A DNA stretch of 64,000 nt from a virus (Duplodnaviria > Caudoviricetes), in IMG/VR virus record IMGVR_UViG_3300028888_000053, positions 128,001 through 192,000 of that record, one strand, 5' to 3'. Below, one piece after another: positions 1,554-27,262 of the stretch (the stretch's first letter is position 1; the number at the start of each line of letters is the position of its first letter). The notes under the pieces are model-generated. The model saw only the letters and a list, made by a program, of their open reading frames with translations, was not told the DNA's origin and did no database searches. Made by a program: the position numbers and the translations under genes.

Positions 1554-3311
1554 TCAAATTGTTAATGCTAAGTTGTAACCACGTACAGTTTTATTTGCTA
1601 TTTTTTTAACAACTTGTTCAACCTTATACTCATGACATTCTTCTATTAAGGCTGCTTTTGGTTTTAATATCTGTATATTATGTCGTCTAAATGCATTAGC
1701 AAAAATTGTTTTTAAAGTAGAAGTTGCAACAAAACCTTCTTTGAAGATTTCTCTAAAGATAGTTGGTAATAGTCTTTTTTCATTTAATAACTATAACAAT
1801 TTATCTTTATTGTAATCTAAGGTTTCCATTTCTCCTGTAGTTACGTATTTACAAAGATCTTCGAACTCTGGATAATCTTCTAAAAATGATTCATCTTTAG
1901 TTCTTATGTATTCTTTAAGTAAAGTACTATAACTAACGCTTCTTGCTCTTTTTAAAGCGACTTCAAAGCTATCCCAATAGTGTTGCTTTAGTACATTAAA
2001 TTTAGAAGATCTCTTATAAGCATCTGTTATATGTAATCCATTCATATATGATTCACGTAACTTTTGTTTGTAAATTAAATATTGCTTTTTAAGCTCATTG
2101 TATTTAATTCCATCTTCTTCCATAGAAACAATGTCTGCTTCTAAGTCAAGACGCTTAGCAAGTAAAGCTAATTGCTTTTTTGTCATTTTAGCAGACATAT
2201 CAATTAATGTGTGAGCATCATCTTCTTTCTCTGCCATTTGTTCTTCAAACTCTTCTTTAGAAGGTAATATGGCATTGGTAGAGTATAAATGAATAAGTCT
2301 ATCTCTAAAGATATTTTGATGCTTTTCATTAAAGCGAATTCTACCTGCGATTTGTTCCATTGTGGTTGATACATCTACTAAAGTATATGTTTTCTTTGCA
2401 TCTGACACTACTATCATTAATCCGTTGTCAGTAAATAGATTACAACCTTGGAAACACTTTTTAGTAAAGAAATTCAATGTCTTATTTGGAGCTGAAACAG
2501 ATTCTATTTCATATCCATTTAATAAGTATCGATTATAAGATTTATCTGCACAACAAATTTTTACTAAGTCTGGATCTAATTTTAATGTATCACAGACTTG
2601 ACGAATACTCTTAACAGAATTAAAGAAAATATATAATTCTCTTACGTTGTGCTGTTTTCCATCTACTCCTTGTAAAGATAAACCATGTTCTAAAAATTGT
2701 TCAATTATCTTTGCTAAAGTACCAGTGACATTCGGAACTTTATAACGCATTGGTGTTAATTTAATGGTATTATCCCATTTTATTCTATAGTGTGGTAATT
2801 TATTTAGAAATTCTATTTCTAAAGTATCATCAATAGGAGTTGCAGATAAAAAAGTATAATGATTGTAACGTGATACAGTATTCATTAAACTTTCAATGGC
2901 TGATTGACGAAAATCCATATCTTCTAAAATAAGATGGTATTCGTCTATTAGTACTTTATATTCTAATATTTCAGAACCAAGCCATTTAGTAAGTTTTTCG
3001 AAACTATCATAAGTAACTGCAATTTTACGCATGCCAGGATTCATTTCTAGATAGTAATTCAATTCGAATTTTTTAAAGCCTTTATAACCTTTAAAAACTT
3101 CATACTTATTATTCTTATCTTCCGCAATACTATCTATTAAATCAACAAACGGACATACTATAATGTATTTACAATCACAATTGGCAGCTAAATAAGTTGC
3201 ACCAACATCGGTTTTGACTTTATTTAATACTCCATGAGGAAGTCCATGTTCAAAACCATGAATTTCGCTAACATAACGAGCACCTTTCGAATCAATTTCT
3301 CTATATTCCAT
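1554..3311 (-). CDS. SF2 helicase-like putative origin-binding/replication initiator protein, 585 aa with TAG(1791-1793) read as Gln
   Basis: Motifs KTDVGAT, LIDEYH, LSATP, FQGCN, QIAGRIR; frame stays open 78 codons past the TAG to a TGA at 1554-1556; flanked by repeat arrays. Confidence 0.75.
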
Positions 3312-3398
3312 ATTACATTAAAATTAAATTATTAATACTAGTGCAATTATAATATAGAGATATATAGAAATCAAATAAATTAAAGAAATAGTAAAAAA

Positions 3399-3781
3399 GT
3401 TACATTTTTTTGTTCGTATAGTGAAAAATTTCCGTAAAAATGTAACCTTGGCTTTTAATTCATTTATTTTAAATTAGTTATAACACAGACCTAATTTTGC
3501 TGAAAAAAGGTTACATTTTTTTGTTCGTATAGTGAAAAGTTTCCGTAAAAATGTAACCTATATTTCAATGATTGATTTTATAAATATTAAACTTTATATC
3601 TTATTTATTTAATAATAAAAAAGGTAACATTTTTTTGTTCGTATAGTGAAAAATTTCCGTAAAAATGTTACACATACTATTAATTACTTGGTTTTTAGGT
3701 ATTTATACTAAGAATGTAATTTTGCTGAAAAAGGTTACATTTTTTTAACCGTATAAGTAAATTTATCCGTAAAAATGTAAC
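3399..3781. repeat. four 48-bp palindrome-ended repeats with 62-66 bp AT-rich spacers (candidate replication origin)
   Basis: GTTACATTTTTTTGTTCGTATAGTGAAAAATTTCCGTAAAAATGTAAC-like units at 3399, 3510, 3624, 3734. Confidence 0.9.
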
Positions 3782-3794
3782 CATCAATATATAT

Positions 3795-3868
3795 CGCGGA
3801 GTGGAGCAGTGGTAGCTCGCTTGTCTCATAAGCAAGAGGTCGTGGGTTCGAGTCCCACCCTTCCGCAA
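3795..3868 (+). tRNA. tRNA-Met(CAT), initiator-like (C1:A72 mismatch)
   Basis: Anticodon arm CTTGT-CTCATAA-GCAAG, T-arm GTGGG-TTCGAGT-CCCAC; two extra C before the acceptor 3' strand. Confidence 0.85.
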
Positions 3869-3872
3869 CTAT

Positions 3873-4016
3873 AGAGGAGTAGCTCAACTGATAGAGCGTA
3901 GCATTTTAAATTATACAAATAGTGTCGAAGCCAGACATCAGTACTATTGTAACAAAATATCATGTAGATGTGATAAGTTAATGCTAAGGTTATAGGTTTG
4001 AATCCTATCTCTTCAA
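3873..4016 (+). tRNA. tRNA-Lys(TTT) interrupted by a 71-nt insertion (3907-3977) between positions 34 and 35
   Basis: Removing 3907-3977 gives TAGCA-TTTTTAA-TGCTA and an intact cloverleaf; the insert ends in G. Confidence 0.75.
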
Positions 4017-4020
4017 CTAT

Positions 4021-4093
4021 AGAGTAGTAGTTCAGTTGGTAGAATGCTTGGTTTGGGACCAAGTGGTCGCCCGTTCGAGTCGGGTCTACTCTA
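4021..4093 (+). tRNA. tRNA-Pro(TGG)
   Basis: Canonical cloverleaf; anticodon arm CTTGG-TTTGGGA-CCAAG. Confidence 0.95.
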
Positions 4094-4217
4094 CGTGTCC
4101 TATTGTTTTTTTTGTTTATTTATTATTTACTATGTTGTTAAACTTGCCTTCTACAGTCTGAGAGAGATAGTAGAAGGTTTCTTTAGAAACTATTTATTAA
4201 CCCAAAATACAAACAAA

Positions 4218-20090: not shown

Positions 20091-20862
20091 TATGACACAA
20101 CAGGAAAAACAAACGGTTAAAGATTTTCATCGTCATTGTATGACATATCTTTTTGGAGAATTTTCTTGTAAAAAATGCAAGAAACTTATTAAACCAAGTG
20201 ATTGTATTGGGTGTCCCATTAAAAATAGTTAGTTATGAAATACATTGAACAATATCTACAAGACGTTGTTAAAATTAAACCATTAGGTAAAATTACAACG
20301 AAAGAAGATGAACTTAATGGTTTTTCAGGTGAAATGGTATATATCGATGGAAAATGTTCTGATATATTTATTTCTCATGCAGATTATGCCAATTATTTAG
20401 AAAGTGTGATTAATGAATACGTAGAATGGGAAAACGAAAAACAGTAGTACAAGAATATCTTGATTCATTAACTAAAGATGATTTATTAGCGATCATAAAG
20501 TATGGTCTTCGTGGTTCTAACGCTCCATTAGATGTTGATGTTGAAGACATTTTTACTTGTATCGGTTGTAAATACATTGAAGAAGGATGATTTACTTAAA
20601 AAGAATTTTGAATTTATTCCTGTGGCTAATAAGAATTGTCGCAGGAATTGCAATTATCATGGTTATTTATCCACTTGATTTGTTAGCCATCCCTATTTAC
20701 TACGTCAAGACTGGACGTAATTATTTGTTAGACTTTAGACCGTTAGGATTTGCTATAGTGCGTTGGATTTGTGGATGCGATTTTGAATGGAAAGATAATT
20801 AATATTAAATAATAATTTAAACAGAATCTCTTGGTAGCTCAATTGGATAGAGCAACAGTCTT

Positions 20863-21479
20863 TAATATTTGGAGCTTTTATGTGGGAAATTGAGAAATTA
20901 ATCAAGAAGGGTGATTATATGTATGCTTTAGTACCTGAACACCCTCATGCTACTAAAAATGGTTACGTGTTACACCATCGAATTGTTGTAGAAAACCATA
21001 TAGGTAGATTACTCAATGCTGATGAAGTTGTTCATCATAAAAACCATAATAAATTTGATAACAGAATTGAAAATCTCGAAGTGTTGAATTATAAAGAGCA
21101 TGTTAGAAAGCATAGCTTAGAACAGGGAAGGAAATGGGCTGTACTCAAATGCCCTATATGTGGAAAAGTGTTTGAGATGCCTTATAACAAAACTGTATAT
21201 CAAAAATATCCTAACGATTCTAATAAAGCACAATGTTGTTGTAGAGCGTGTGGGTGTAAGTTAGGTAGATTGAAACAACTGAACAGAATAACTCATGAAA
21301 TGGAGATTGCTATATCGGGGAATCTCCTATCTGTATACAAAAAATATACAGAGGACAACCCCGAGGTAACCTTAGATTAAGAGGGTACCGTAGAGACTAT
21401 ACGCAATCCGCCTGAAATGGCGAAGGGATAGTCCAGACTACAACATTTCATAATGGCTATAGTAATATAGAGTAGTAAG
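20863..21479 (+). mobile_element. group I intron (617 nt) carrying an HNH homing endonuclease gene
   Basis: 5' exon ends in U and intron ends in G; P3 GATTGC/GCAATC, R GTAGAGACTA, S GGATAGTCC, P9.0 ACTAC/GTAGT. Confidence 0.9.
20880..21380 (+). CDS. intron-encoded HNH homing endonuclease with C-terminal Zn finger
   Basis: HHRIVVENHIGR...VHHKNHNKFDNRIENL; CPICGK...CCRAC. Confidence 0.9.
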   Translation: MWEIEKLIKKGDYMYALVPEHPHATKNGYVLHHRIVVENHIGRLLNADEVVHHKNHNKFDNRIENLEVLNYKEHVRKHSLEQGRKWAVLKCPICGKVFEMPYNKTVYQKYPNDSNKAQCCCRACGCKLGRLKQLNRITHEMEIAISGNLLSVYKKYTEDNPEVTLD

Positions 21480-21536
21480 CTAAACTGTGGGTCTTGGGTT
21501 CGAGTCCCAACCAGGAGACTAAAAATATATAACAAT

Positions 21537-25380: not shown

Positions 25381-25943
25381 GATTCCGTAGCTCAGTTGGT
25401 AGAGCACAGCACTTTAAACTAAAAGAAGAGTGCATAGGCGAGAAATCCCTATGTAGAATCTCCTAAATTCGGTGGAAATCCTTAGCCTACTAGATACAAT
25501 ACTGTTATGGGATGGCTACAGTACATTAAACAATAATGTGTAAGGACTATACCGAGCGAAAATAGTATCTCAGATAAGTCTAATTAACTTATATCGTAAG
25601 AACTGAGCAGGCGTTAAAAGTAGAGCAAATCAGATATGTCTACATACTATAATCGTGTAGAGGCCAAACGGGAGATATCTAAGTTGGAATTGTATTCCTC
25701 AATGGTAATGAGGTATCTAGCAATCGTACTAGGTAGGTGTTCAAATCACCAATACTCTTGCAAGAATTCCAATAAGATAAAGAGATGGTCCAGATCACAA
25801 CAGACACAAGTCTTTAGGCAACCTCTCTAAGAGCAGCATAAGACTATAGAGGTGATAGTGCAAGAATTCTAAAGTGTTTGGCTATGGTAACATAGTGTGA
25901 TAGGTTAATGCTGGGGTCACGAGTTCGAATCTCGTCGGAATCA
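25381..25943 (+). tRNA. tRNA-Lys(TTT) split by a group I intron (exons 25381-25414 and 25905-25943)
   Basis: Joined exons give CAGCA-CTTTTAA-TGCTG; acceptor GATTCCG/CGGAATC. Confidence 0.92.
25415..25904 (+). mobile_element. group I intron (490 nt, no ORF) with expanded peripheral domains
   Basis: P1 exon CTT/IGS GAG with U.G pair; P3 ATCTCC/GGAGAT; compensated P7 GGCCA/TGGTC; P9.0 ATCAC/GTGAT; terminal G. Confidence 0.9.
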
Positions 25944-25970
25944 CTATTAACAATTTTTAATATAATTTTA

Positions 25971-26157: not shown

Positions 26158-26748
26158 ATGAAGAAATTCATTTTTGCCGTTATGGCATTGTTGTGCATGG
26201 TTGCATGTAATCCAAAGAAGAGTGAAACTGTTCCTGTTCAAGAGGAAACACCCGTAGAATTGATCGTTGGTAATACAATCTCAACTGATCGTCAGTACAT
26301 GTTTATGAATTATGGAGGTGATTATCGTTGGTATGAGACTTGTATTACTCTTGATGATTATCTTGATAGTGAGAACTGCAACGGCTCAATTGAAAGTATT
26401 TCTAATGTTTTCCAAGTAGTTAAAGGTGATAGTACTTCTTTTGATCCATATGTAATCATGTCATCTTATACTCGTACATCAAGTAATACTGAAGTTATAT
26501 CTGGATTTTGGGTTGGTGATGAGCCTATGAATGAAGAGGAAATTAATTTAACTTTTAAAGATGCTTATGAATTCTTAATGGAAGCTAATTGTCCTAAACC
26601 TCATTCAAGACATTGTGTTCTTAGAAAAGAACTTGGACCTAAAATAGATGTGGCACCACAATACATTTTTGGCAATCAACAGTATCAAGTGTATGTTGAT
26701 GCCTTTGATGGTATTGTAACGGATCATAATCCGGCTTTTAATGAGTAA
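26158..26748 (+). CDS. lipoprotein
   Basis: MKKFIFAVMALLCMVAC lipobox; PepSY-like C-terminus (VYVDAFDG). Confidence 0.75.
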   Translation: MKKFIFAVMALLCMVACNPKKSETVPVQEETPVELIVGNTISTDRQYMFMNYGGDYRWYETCITLDDYLDSENCNGSIESISNVFQVVKGDSTSFDPYVIMSSYTRTSSNTEVISGFWVGDEPMNEEEINLTFKDAYEFLMEANCPKPHSRHCVLRKELGPKIDVAPQYIFGNQQYQVYVDAFDGIVTDHNPAFNE

Positions 26749-26905: not shown

Positions 26906-27240
26906 GCCTAGGTGATGAAAAGGTAAACATTCCAGACTTGCATGTAACTAATTTAATATCAGTTACTTAGAGTGCATTTAATCGAAAGGTTTAATGTAGA
27001 ATCTCGCTAACAAACAGAAACCTTGAATATGGTGACATATTCTTTGGCGATGGCTCACTAAATGGATATTATATCCTAAATGGCGTAGAGACTATATACG
27101 AGACACCTAAACGATAACGTATGGTGATGAAATAGTCCAGACTACAACATCTCAAGTTAGATGGCTTATTTAAAAGTAAGAGTAGTAAGAAAATCTGGTG
27201 GAACGTAGGTTCCTTGGGGGTTCGAGTCCCCTCCTGGGCA
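26906..27240 (+). tRNA. tRNA-Leu(TAA) split by a group I intron (exons 26906-26939 and 27190-27240)
   Basis: Joined exons give CCAGA-CTTAAAA-TCTGG, long variable arm GGAAC-GTAG-GTTCC, acceptor GCCTAGG/CCTGGGC. Confidence 0.92.
26940..27189 (+). mobile_element. group I intron (250 nt)
   Basis: R CGTAGAGACTA, S AAATAGTCC, P9.0 ACTAC/GTAGT, terminal G; GAGTGCAT...ATGTAGAATCTC shared with the Lys intron. Confidence 0.9.
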
Positions 27241-27262
27241 CTATCTAATAAATACAAAGTAA

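Follow-up and report, generated by a model that had tools for sequence, protein, structure and literature searches.

The stretch of DNA analyzed here (hereafter, the window) comprises 64,000 nt, bases 128001-192000 of a 212,277-bp IMG/VR virus record with a G+C content of ~32%, and belongs to a gut or rumen phage with a 212-kb genome. Near the start of the window, a tight cluster of three tRNA genes on the plus strand consists of tRNA-Met (3795-3867), an interrupted tRNA-Lys gene (3873-4016), which begins after a 5-nt spacer, and tRNA-Pro (4021-4094), which follows after another 4 nt and has the 5′ leader, and most of the 5′ strand of the acceptor stem, in common with the interrupted gene. The acceptor stem of tRNA-Met is irregular, with one extra base in the 3′ strand of the Rfam alignment, and this tRNA shows 90.6% identity to one from Prevotella phage Lak-A2. 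The genes of the window near the cluster resemble those of Bacteroides, including a gene for a DEAD-box helicase with 53% identity to a protein of B. thetaiotaomicron. As called, this helicase (1791-3311, minus strand) has 506 aa, compared with 585 aa in a near-identical strain represented by a 212,417-bp ENA assembly and 586-590 aa in the Bacteroides homologs; the copy in the window may be truncated or its start miscalled. Between the helicase gene and the tRNA cluster (3387-3782) lie 2-4 copies of a repeat of ~110-176 nt, 80-85% identical to one another, with boxes that, judged by eye, are similar to the TAnnTTTG-like -7 boxes of Bacteroidota; it is in these repeats that the Logan contigs of related strains break.

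The interrupted gene is readily recognized as a tRNA. The region 3873-4016 matches the Rfam tRNA model (RF00005) end to end with 45.5 bits (gathering score 29), leaving 72 nt unaligned in the anticodon loop, and ARAGORN in intron mode calls a tRNA at the same positions. The 5′ exon corresponds to tRNA positions 1-34 (3873-3906; A15, A19 and U34 at 3887, 3891 and 3906, respectively) and the 3′ exon to positions 35-73 (3978-4016; U48 at 3991, U56 at 3999, A72 at 4015 and the discriminator A at 4016). Between them lies an insert of 71 nt (3907-3977), which, as originally predicted and in agreement with both programs, occupies the 34/35 site, the same as the 490-nt intron (25415-25904) of the second tRNA-Lys gene in the window. 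Removal of 3907-3977 yields a 73-nt cloverleaf identified by ARAGORN as tRNA-Lys(ttt), that is, tRNA-Lys(UUU), with the conserved nucleotides of the D and T loops and a 7-nt anticodon loop reading UUU. The D, anticodon and T stems pair perfectly, and the acceptor stem contains a G4.U69 wobble and an A1xA72 mismatch, so that 20 of the 21 stem pairs and all universal nucleotides are retained.

The body of this tRNA differs from that of the second tRNA-Lys (25381-25944), which has G15, G19, C48 and C56, in carrying A15, A19, U48 and U56; both matched pairs, A19(3891)-U56(3999) and A15-U48, were found where they had been predicted. A scan of IMG/VR for the same D-arm recovered 6 phage tRNAs, every one of which has U56, and A19-U56 is thus, on these sequences, a recurrent and evidently working variant of the elbow that is not peculiar to the interrupted gene. 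The two pairs indicate that the tRNA body was under selection at some time and do not imply current use. The further argument that such compensated pairs speak against decay is not upheld, as the pairs do not indicate that selection continued after the loss of the intron core. Two other tRNA-like genes of the same genome have unusual anticodon arms: the gene at 13380-13453, called as Asn(att) or as CUA with a 2-nt "intron", seems to have a 9-nt anticodon loop, and the gene at 34988-35057 combines perfect acceptor, D and T arms with a 6-nt anticodon loop.

Across the whole genome, the intron mode of ARAGORN yields four tRNA genes with an interruption; all of them lie within the window, and in each the insert separates positions 34 and 35. 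The other three genes, likewise on the plus strand, contain full group I introns: tRNA-Lys(UUU) (25381-25944) with the 490-nt intron, tRNA-Leu(UAA) (26906-27241) with an intron of 250 nt (26940-27189), and tRNA-Arg(UCU) (20828-21519) with an intron of 617 nt (20863-21479). The last of these introns encodes a 166-aa HNH endonuclease (20880-21380; PHROG E-value 5e-17, Pfam HNH_3 E-value 5e-10), with the ORF beginning 17 nt into the intron and ending close to the core motif at 21390. The guide sequence of the Leu intron (near 26975-26983) includes the same hexamer as that of the Lys intron, which forms 6 of 6 pairs with the Lys exon and only 4 of 6 with its own Leu exon, suggesting either a recent move from a tRNA-Lys site or a shared ancestor. 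Between the Lys and Leu genes, a 196-aa ORF (26158-26748) has no Pfam hits, and tblastx detects a homolog beside the intron-bearing tRNA-Lys of another IMG/VR contig, L201 (IMGVR_UViG_3300021387_001157).

The Rfam group I intron model (RF00028) is insensitive to this family of introns: the 490-nt Lys intron aligns to the whole model with 29.4 bits (E-value 2.3e-5), and a complete 196-nt tRNA-Lys intron from a related locus of a metagenome scan (L106) scores 45.1 bits (E-value 1.3e-10), neither reaching the gathering score of 50; for the Arg and Leu introns there is no match even at an E-value of 1, and the search of the whole genome gave no hit. Nevertheless, the Lys, Arg, Leu and L106 inserts share core blocks and the architecture of the 3′ end, and we treat them as one family of group I introns, of the type that occurs in tRNA genes of bacteria. 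In the 3′ domain of this family, the 3′ strand of P7 is followed by CAG, a 5-nt P9.0 strand and one or two P9 hairpins, the last of which has a GNRA loop and leads into the complementary P9.0 strand, A-R-G and the exon. P9.0 covaries: the Arg/Leu type, the Lys intron of the window and L093, a 152-kb relative, have three different complementary pentamer pairs. This relative also contains a tRNA-Leu(UAA) with a 234-nt intron and, at 2419-2483, a 65-nt hit to the tRNA model (49 bits) that may be another shortened tRNA-like gene.

Against this background, the 71-nt insert can be resolved into parts. Its first 19 nt (3907-3925) represent a remnant of the P1 loop and guide sequence, identical at 13 positions to 25415-25433, with the guide hexamer (3920-3925) at intron offset 14-19, exactly as in the full Lys intron. 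A junction of 5 nt (3926-3930) then stands where, by comparison with the 3′ domains of the family, P2-P8 and both strands of P7 are missing, including the P7 3′ strand that reads TAGTC or TGGTC in the full introns. The segment 3931-3940 comprises the CCAG motif (3931-3934; end of P7/J7-9), the start of the predicted CCAGAC (3931-3936), and then the 5′ strand of P9.0 (3937-3940); it is followed by the 5′ strand and GUAA loop of a P9 hairpin (3944-3954), identical to 25881-25891 at 10 of 11 positions, of which the 3′ strand is broken by an insertion of ~10 nt. The insert closes with the 3′ strand of P9.0 (3970-3974), a pentamer that has the same sequence in the full Lys intron, and then AA and the terminal G (3977). 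The originally noted complementary pentamers 3935-3939 and 3967-3971 do exist; in the family geometry, P9.0 is formed by 3937-3940 and 3971-3974 (4 bp, or 4 of 5), after which come A-A-G and the exon. The span from CCAG to the terminal G is 47 nt, the same length as in the Arg intron.

The case for common ancestry begins with the ends of the insert. The identities to the 490-nt Lys intron that had been pointed out, 13 of 19 at the 5′ end and 8 of 9, with the terminal G, at the 3′ end, were reproduced on recomputation and are rare by chance, being reached by random positions of the window at frequencies of 3.9e-4 and 9e-5, respectively; among the full introns in our set, no pair exceeds 10 of 19 at the 5′ end. 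Furthermore, aligning the insert collinearly with the 490-nt intron, with long deletions allowed, gives a score of 42, which was attained by none of 1000 shuffles (15.5 +/- 5.1, maximum 35) and, across three kinds of null with ~3000 trials (means of about 12-17 +/- 5-6, maximum 35), by none either. The 47-nt 3′ part of the insert, aligned with the 47-nt 3′ domain of the Arg intron, achieves a score that only 3 of 1000 shuffles reach. The interior (3926-3968), by contrast, does not align significantly with the full intron in a local comparison without anchoring (266 of 500 shuffles reach its score), and the detailed register was therefore taken from the family structure; an alignment with free gaps that placed the middle of the insert in the J6/7-P7 5′ region was dropped in favor of the P7-3′/P9.0 register, because only the latter fits both the family geometry and the P9.0 pairing. 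The weak interior and the AT-richness of the insert are what one would expect of an unrelated filler, or an unrelated mobile insert, at 34/35 that resembles an intron by chance; however, the anchored matches of the ends, the offset of the guide hexamer, the geometry of P9.0 and both alignment tests make such a coincidence very improbable. On these homologies, the insert descends from a group I intron of the tRNA-Lys lineage that lost whatever separated the guide sequence from the end of P7, and the original description of it as a core-less derivative keeping a P1 remnant, P9.0 and the terminal G holds.

What the insert lacks is equally clear. The absence of P3-P7, noted from the outset, was borne out by the failure of RF00028 to match the region 3700-4200 even at an E-value of 10 and by a search for the group I core motifs, which, within the genome, occur only in the three full introns. 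The guide hexamer (3920-3925) forms 5 of 6 pairs with the 5′ exon, and the guide position opposite U34 is U (3920), as had been cautioned, giving UxU instead of U.G at the splice site. The predicted fold of the insert is weak, with a z-score of -1.0 both alone and within the pre-tRNA, where the minimum-energy fold preserves the cloverleaf and lengthens the anticodon stem by two pairs. Because the guanosine pocket of P7 is absent, together with the rest of the P3-P8 core, and the pair at the 5′ splice site is UxU, self-splicing of the insert is excluded.

The interrupted gene is not an assembly artefact, given that a separate JGI contig from the same sample (L092, which together with L097 represents the same genome) carries an identical locus and that the independent ENA assembly of the near-identical strain has the same 906-nt spacing across the tRNA cluster. 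No diverged relative carrying the locus was found in IMG/VR, among GenBank phages or in one metagenome scan. Specifically, scans of IMG/VR anchored on proteins (the radical-SAM gene, the helicase and an alignment of 18 radical-SAM sequences) recovered no relative with the locus, a pattern scan for the D-arm in the same database returned only unrelated tRNAs, a gapped exon-insert-exon pattern search had no match, and the 462 loci obtained with the GLF-like gene as an anchor were all unrelated; among GenBank phages, neither the locus nor the full intron has a similar counterpart. Contigs of closer strains (93% and about 69% nucleotide identity) all end at the borders of the cluster: L090 (93%) stops 111 nt from the helicase start, L091 stops inside tRNA-Met, and L098 and a contig from SRR9006805 begin downstream of the locus. 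The metagenome scan yielded 13 loci, only one of which, L106, contains a tRNA-Lys. An Rfam search of 13 relative loci detected no other tRNA with an insert of intermediate size. In L106, the counterpart of the radical-SAM gene that neighbors the interrupted tRNA-Lys is 47% identical, and just upstream of it lies a tRNA-Lys(UUU) with the complete 196-nt intron at 34/35; we therefore take a full intron to be the ancestral state of this neighborhood.

We consider the interrupted tRNA-Lys to be, most probably, a young relic, a disabled and redundant tRNA pseudogene, and assign to this reading a probability of about 0.5. The gene would be redundant because an intact tRNA-Lys(UUU) gene with a self-splicing intron lies 21.5 kb downstream. 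A single large deletion inside an ancestral intron of 200-250 nt could have removed P2 through the 3′ strand of P7, and smaller lesions would have followed, namely, the change of the guide-sequence G to U, the insertion of ~10 nt in P9 and the A1xA72 mismatch. Given that tRNA-Met and tRNA-Pro flank the gene with spacers of 4-5 nt, it is presumably still transcribed and released with its neighbors, as a tRNA-shaped RNA of ~144 nt in which the anticodon is split. Intact exons next to an insert that has drifted for long would have implied selection, an argument that we dropped, as the single-deletion anatomy removes the evidence for long drift; because this anatomy fits one recent, large deletion, intact exons are also to be expected of a young pseudogene. 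Several observations nevertheless weigh against a relic. The exons are flawless apart from A1xA72, with A19-U56 and A15-U48 matched; the gene keeps its slot in the tight cluster of three tRNAs, the length of which is the same in the near-identical strain; the elements that a helper ribozyme would read are all intact, namely, the target in the 5′ exon, the 3′ strand of P9.0, the terminal G and the initial 8 nt of the 3′ exon; and other large phages with group I tRNA introns keep short inserts in tRNAs that are otherwise intact. These points do not demonstrate function, but a long-dead gene would look worse.

A first alternative is removal in trans. Group I ribozymes can cleave and trans-splice substrates held only by their guide sequence, in vitro as well as in engineered cells, and the full tRNA-Lys intron (25415-25904), acting either as an excised ribozyme or before its own splicing, might remove the insert in trans and thereby supply a second working tRNA-Lys(UUU). 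The helper would hold the 5′ exon with its guide sequence and the 3′ end of the insert with the 5′ strand of its P9.0, and accept the terminal G of the insert in its P7 pocket, with the anticodon stem of the tRNA keeping the exons together. Indeed, the guide hexamer of the helper pairs with the 5′ exon at 6 of 6 positions, with U.G at the splice site, compared with 5 of 6 and UxU for the hexamer of the insert, and its P9.0 5′ strand pairs 5 of 5 with 3970-3974, compared with 4 of 5 for the strand of the insert itself; the terminal G and the beginning of the 3′ exon are conserved, and the exons are intact. All these matches, however, are also predicted by recent common descent, with counts too small to tell the two apart, the P1 remnant of the insert and an alternative hairpin (3958-3975) would compete with binding of the helper, and we know of no natural group I intron that depends on a helper. 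On balance, we regard such removal in trans as unlikely, and as slightly less likely still the more specific proposition of a non-autonomous group I intron occurring in nature, with the insert pared down to a minimal substrate module after shedding its core and spliced by the tRNA-Lys ribozyme 21.5 kb away. The proposed module, consisting of the target in the 5′ exon, the P9.0 3′ strand and the terminal G, would be to the ribozyme what a miniature transposable element is to the transposase of its full-length counterpart.

Two readings of lower probability do without a ribozyme. In one of these, which we consider quite doubtful, a host endonuclease would cut the precursor and RtcB reseal it, as proposed for "enigmatic" phage inserts; inserts of 26-94 nt recur in otherwise intact tRNAs of several phages with group I tRNA introns, and those of Lak megaphages are identical across cohorts (PMC6784885). 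B. thetaiotaomicron, a likely relative of the host, does possess RtcB, which served as the control in our search. The phage genome itself, however, contains no match to RtcB, Rnl2 or the splicing endonuclease EndA (PF01974, which the same search detects in archaeal controls), whereas the search of the phage for Rnl1, also without a match, had a control that matched nowhere either. Moreover, no bacterial tRNA-splicing endonuclease is known to us, the predicted pre-tRNA fold offers neither a 3-4-3 bulge-helix-bulge nor a tight hairpin, and, unlike the "enigmatic" inserts, this one is explained by descent from a ribozyme. Similarly improbable, in our estimate, is that the RNA functions unspliced, as a 144-nt tRNA-shaped decoy or competitor with a masked anticodon, possibly directed at host anticodon nucleases that attack tRNA-Lys or at enzymes of tRNA modification and processing. 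The elbow and acceptor are intact, two more tRNA-like genes with altered anticodons are present in the genome (13380-13453 and 34988-35057), and tRNA-Lys is a frequent target of anti-phage nucleases. Conversely, a decoy for anticodon nucleases should display the anticodon loop rather than split it, and by itself the insert does not fold stably (z-score -1.0). The young relic remains the reading that we favor.

Whichever reading is correct, the locus belongs to a broader and little described phenomenon, the common presence of group I introns in tRNA genes of large uncultured phages. A 2014 review placed all phage group I introns in protein-coding genes (PMC3984707), as against the at least 117 IMG/VR viral contigs (loci L112-L228) in which we found a 16-nt core motif spanning the P7 3′ strand and P9.0. 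Among the matches listed, 85 contigs have the motif within a tRNA that ARAGORN calls, in inserts of 182-1143 nt, none of which is core-less; the anticodons called for these matches include Leu(UAA), Lys, Asn, Phe, Arg and Ser, although such calls are unreliable for intron-bearing genes. Short inserts of 26-94 nt that ARAGORN detects in well-formed tRNAs of five contigs (L196, L201, L136, L171 and L139), some with a T-arm-like hairpin or a shared module, look unrelated to the 71-nt insert. Four of these contigs (L201, L136, L171 and L196) combine a group I tRNA intron with tRNAs or tRNA-like genes bearing inserts of 27-94 nt, and two pairs of such genes (L201 5243-5366 and 6063-6183; L136 4578-4702 and L171 7943-8058) have in common a hairpin and, after it, a conserved block containing ACAGC, which suggests a mobile or functional module. 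If the relic is indeed dead, it offers a snapshot of a self-splicing intron turning from a harmless passenger into a lesion that kills its gene, for which one internal deletion would have been enough, and three working sister introns in the same phage are available for comparison. Splicing of the insert, if it occurs, would provide the first natural example of a group I intron dependent on a ribozyme supplied in trans.

Several known systems resemble this insert in part. Among them are the IC3-type group I introns in the anticodon loops of bacterial tRNAs, exemplified by cyanobacterial and plastid tRNA-Leu(UAA), interrupted at U34/A35, and Azoarcus tRNA-Ile. The insert shares with them the tRNA host gene, the 34/35 site, the terminal G, P9.0 and a guide sequence complementary to the anticodon stem-loop, but it lacks P2-P8, the guanosine pocket of P7 and the U.G pair at the splice site, and its 71 nt are far below the ~180-200 nt that form the minimum of the family among the matches listed. 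Engineered trans-acting and trans-splicing group I ribozymes and fragmented introns that reassemble demonstrate that a core provided in trans can act on a substrate recognized by the guide sequence, precisely as the helper model requires. These, however, are laboratory constructs or two-piece organelle introns, the halves of which rebuild a single core, unlike the helper model; we are aware of no natural intron described to borrow a complete sister ribozyme. The group III introns of Euglena plastids are likewise streamlined mini-introns derived from a self-splicing class and thought to depend on trans-acting factors, but they are group II-derived, numerous, conserved and known to be spliced.

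Degenerate group I introns without catalytic sequences, removed by unidentified machinery, have been described in the nuclear rDNA of lichen fungi (PMC8527467) and, like the insert, are catalysis-deficient group I derivatives in a gene for a structural RNA, in their case an essential one. They differ in being eukaryotic, in residing in rRNA, in their length of about 300 nt and in that their removal was seen on Northern blots, whereas the insert belongs to a phage tRNA, is far smaller and is known from the gene sequence. Finally, the original assertion that the insert has no equivalent in phages stands only in part: tRNAs of Lak megaphages carry "enigmatic" introns (Devoto et al. 2019, PMC6784885) that are similarly short, incapable of self-splicing and located in the anticodon region of tRNAs of large phages, yet none of these has been traced to a group I intron. 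It is in this respect that the insert stands apart, as the Lak introns have no recognized relation to group I, whereas the insert can be followed, one segment after another, to a full ribozyme encoded by the same phage.
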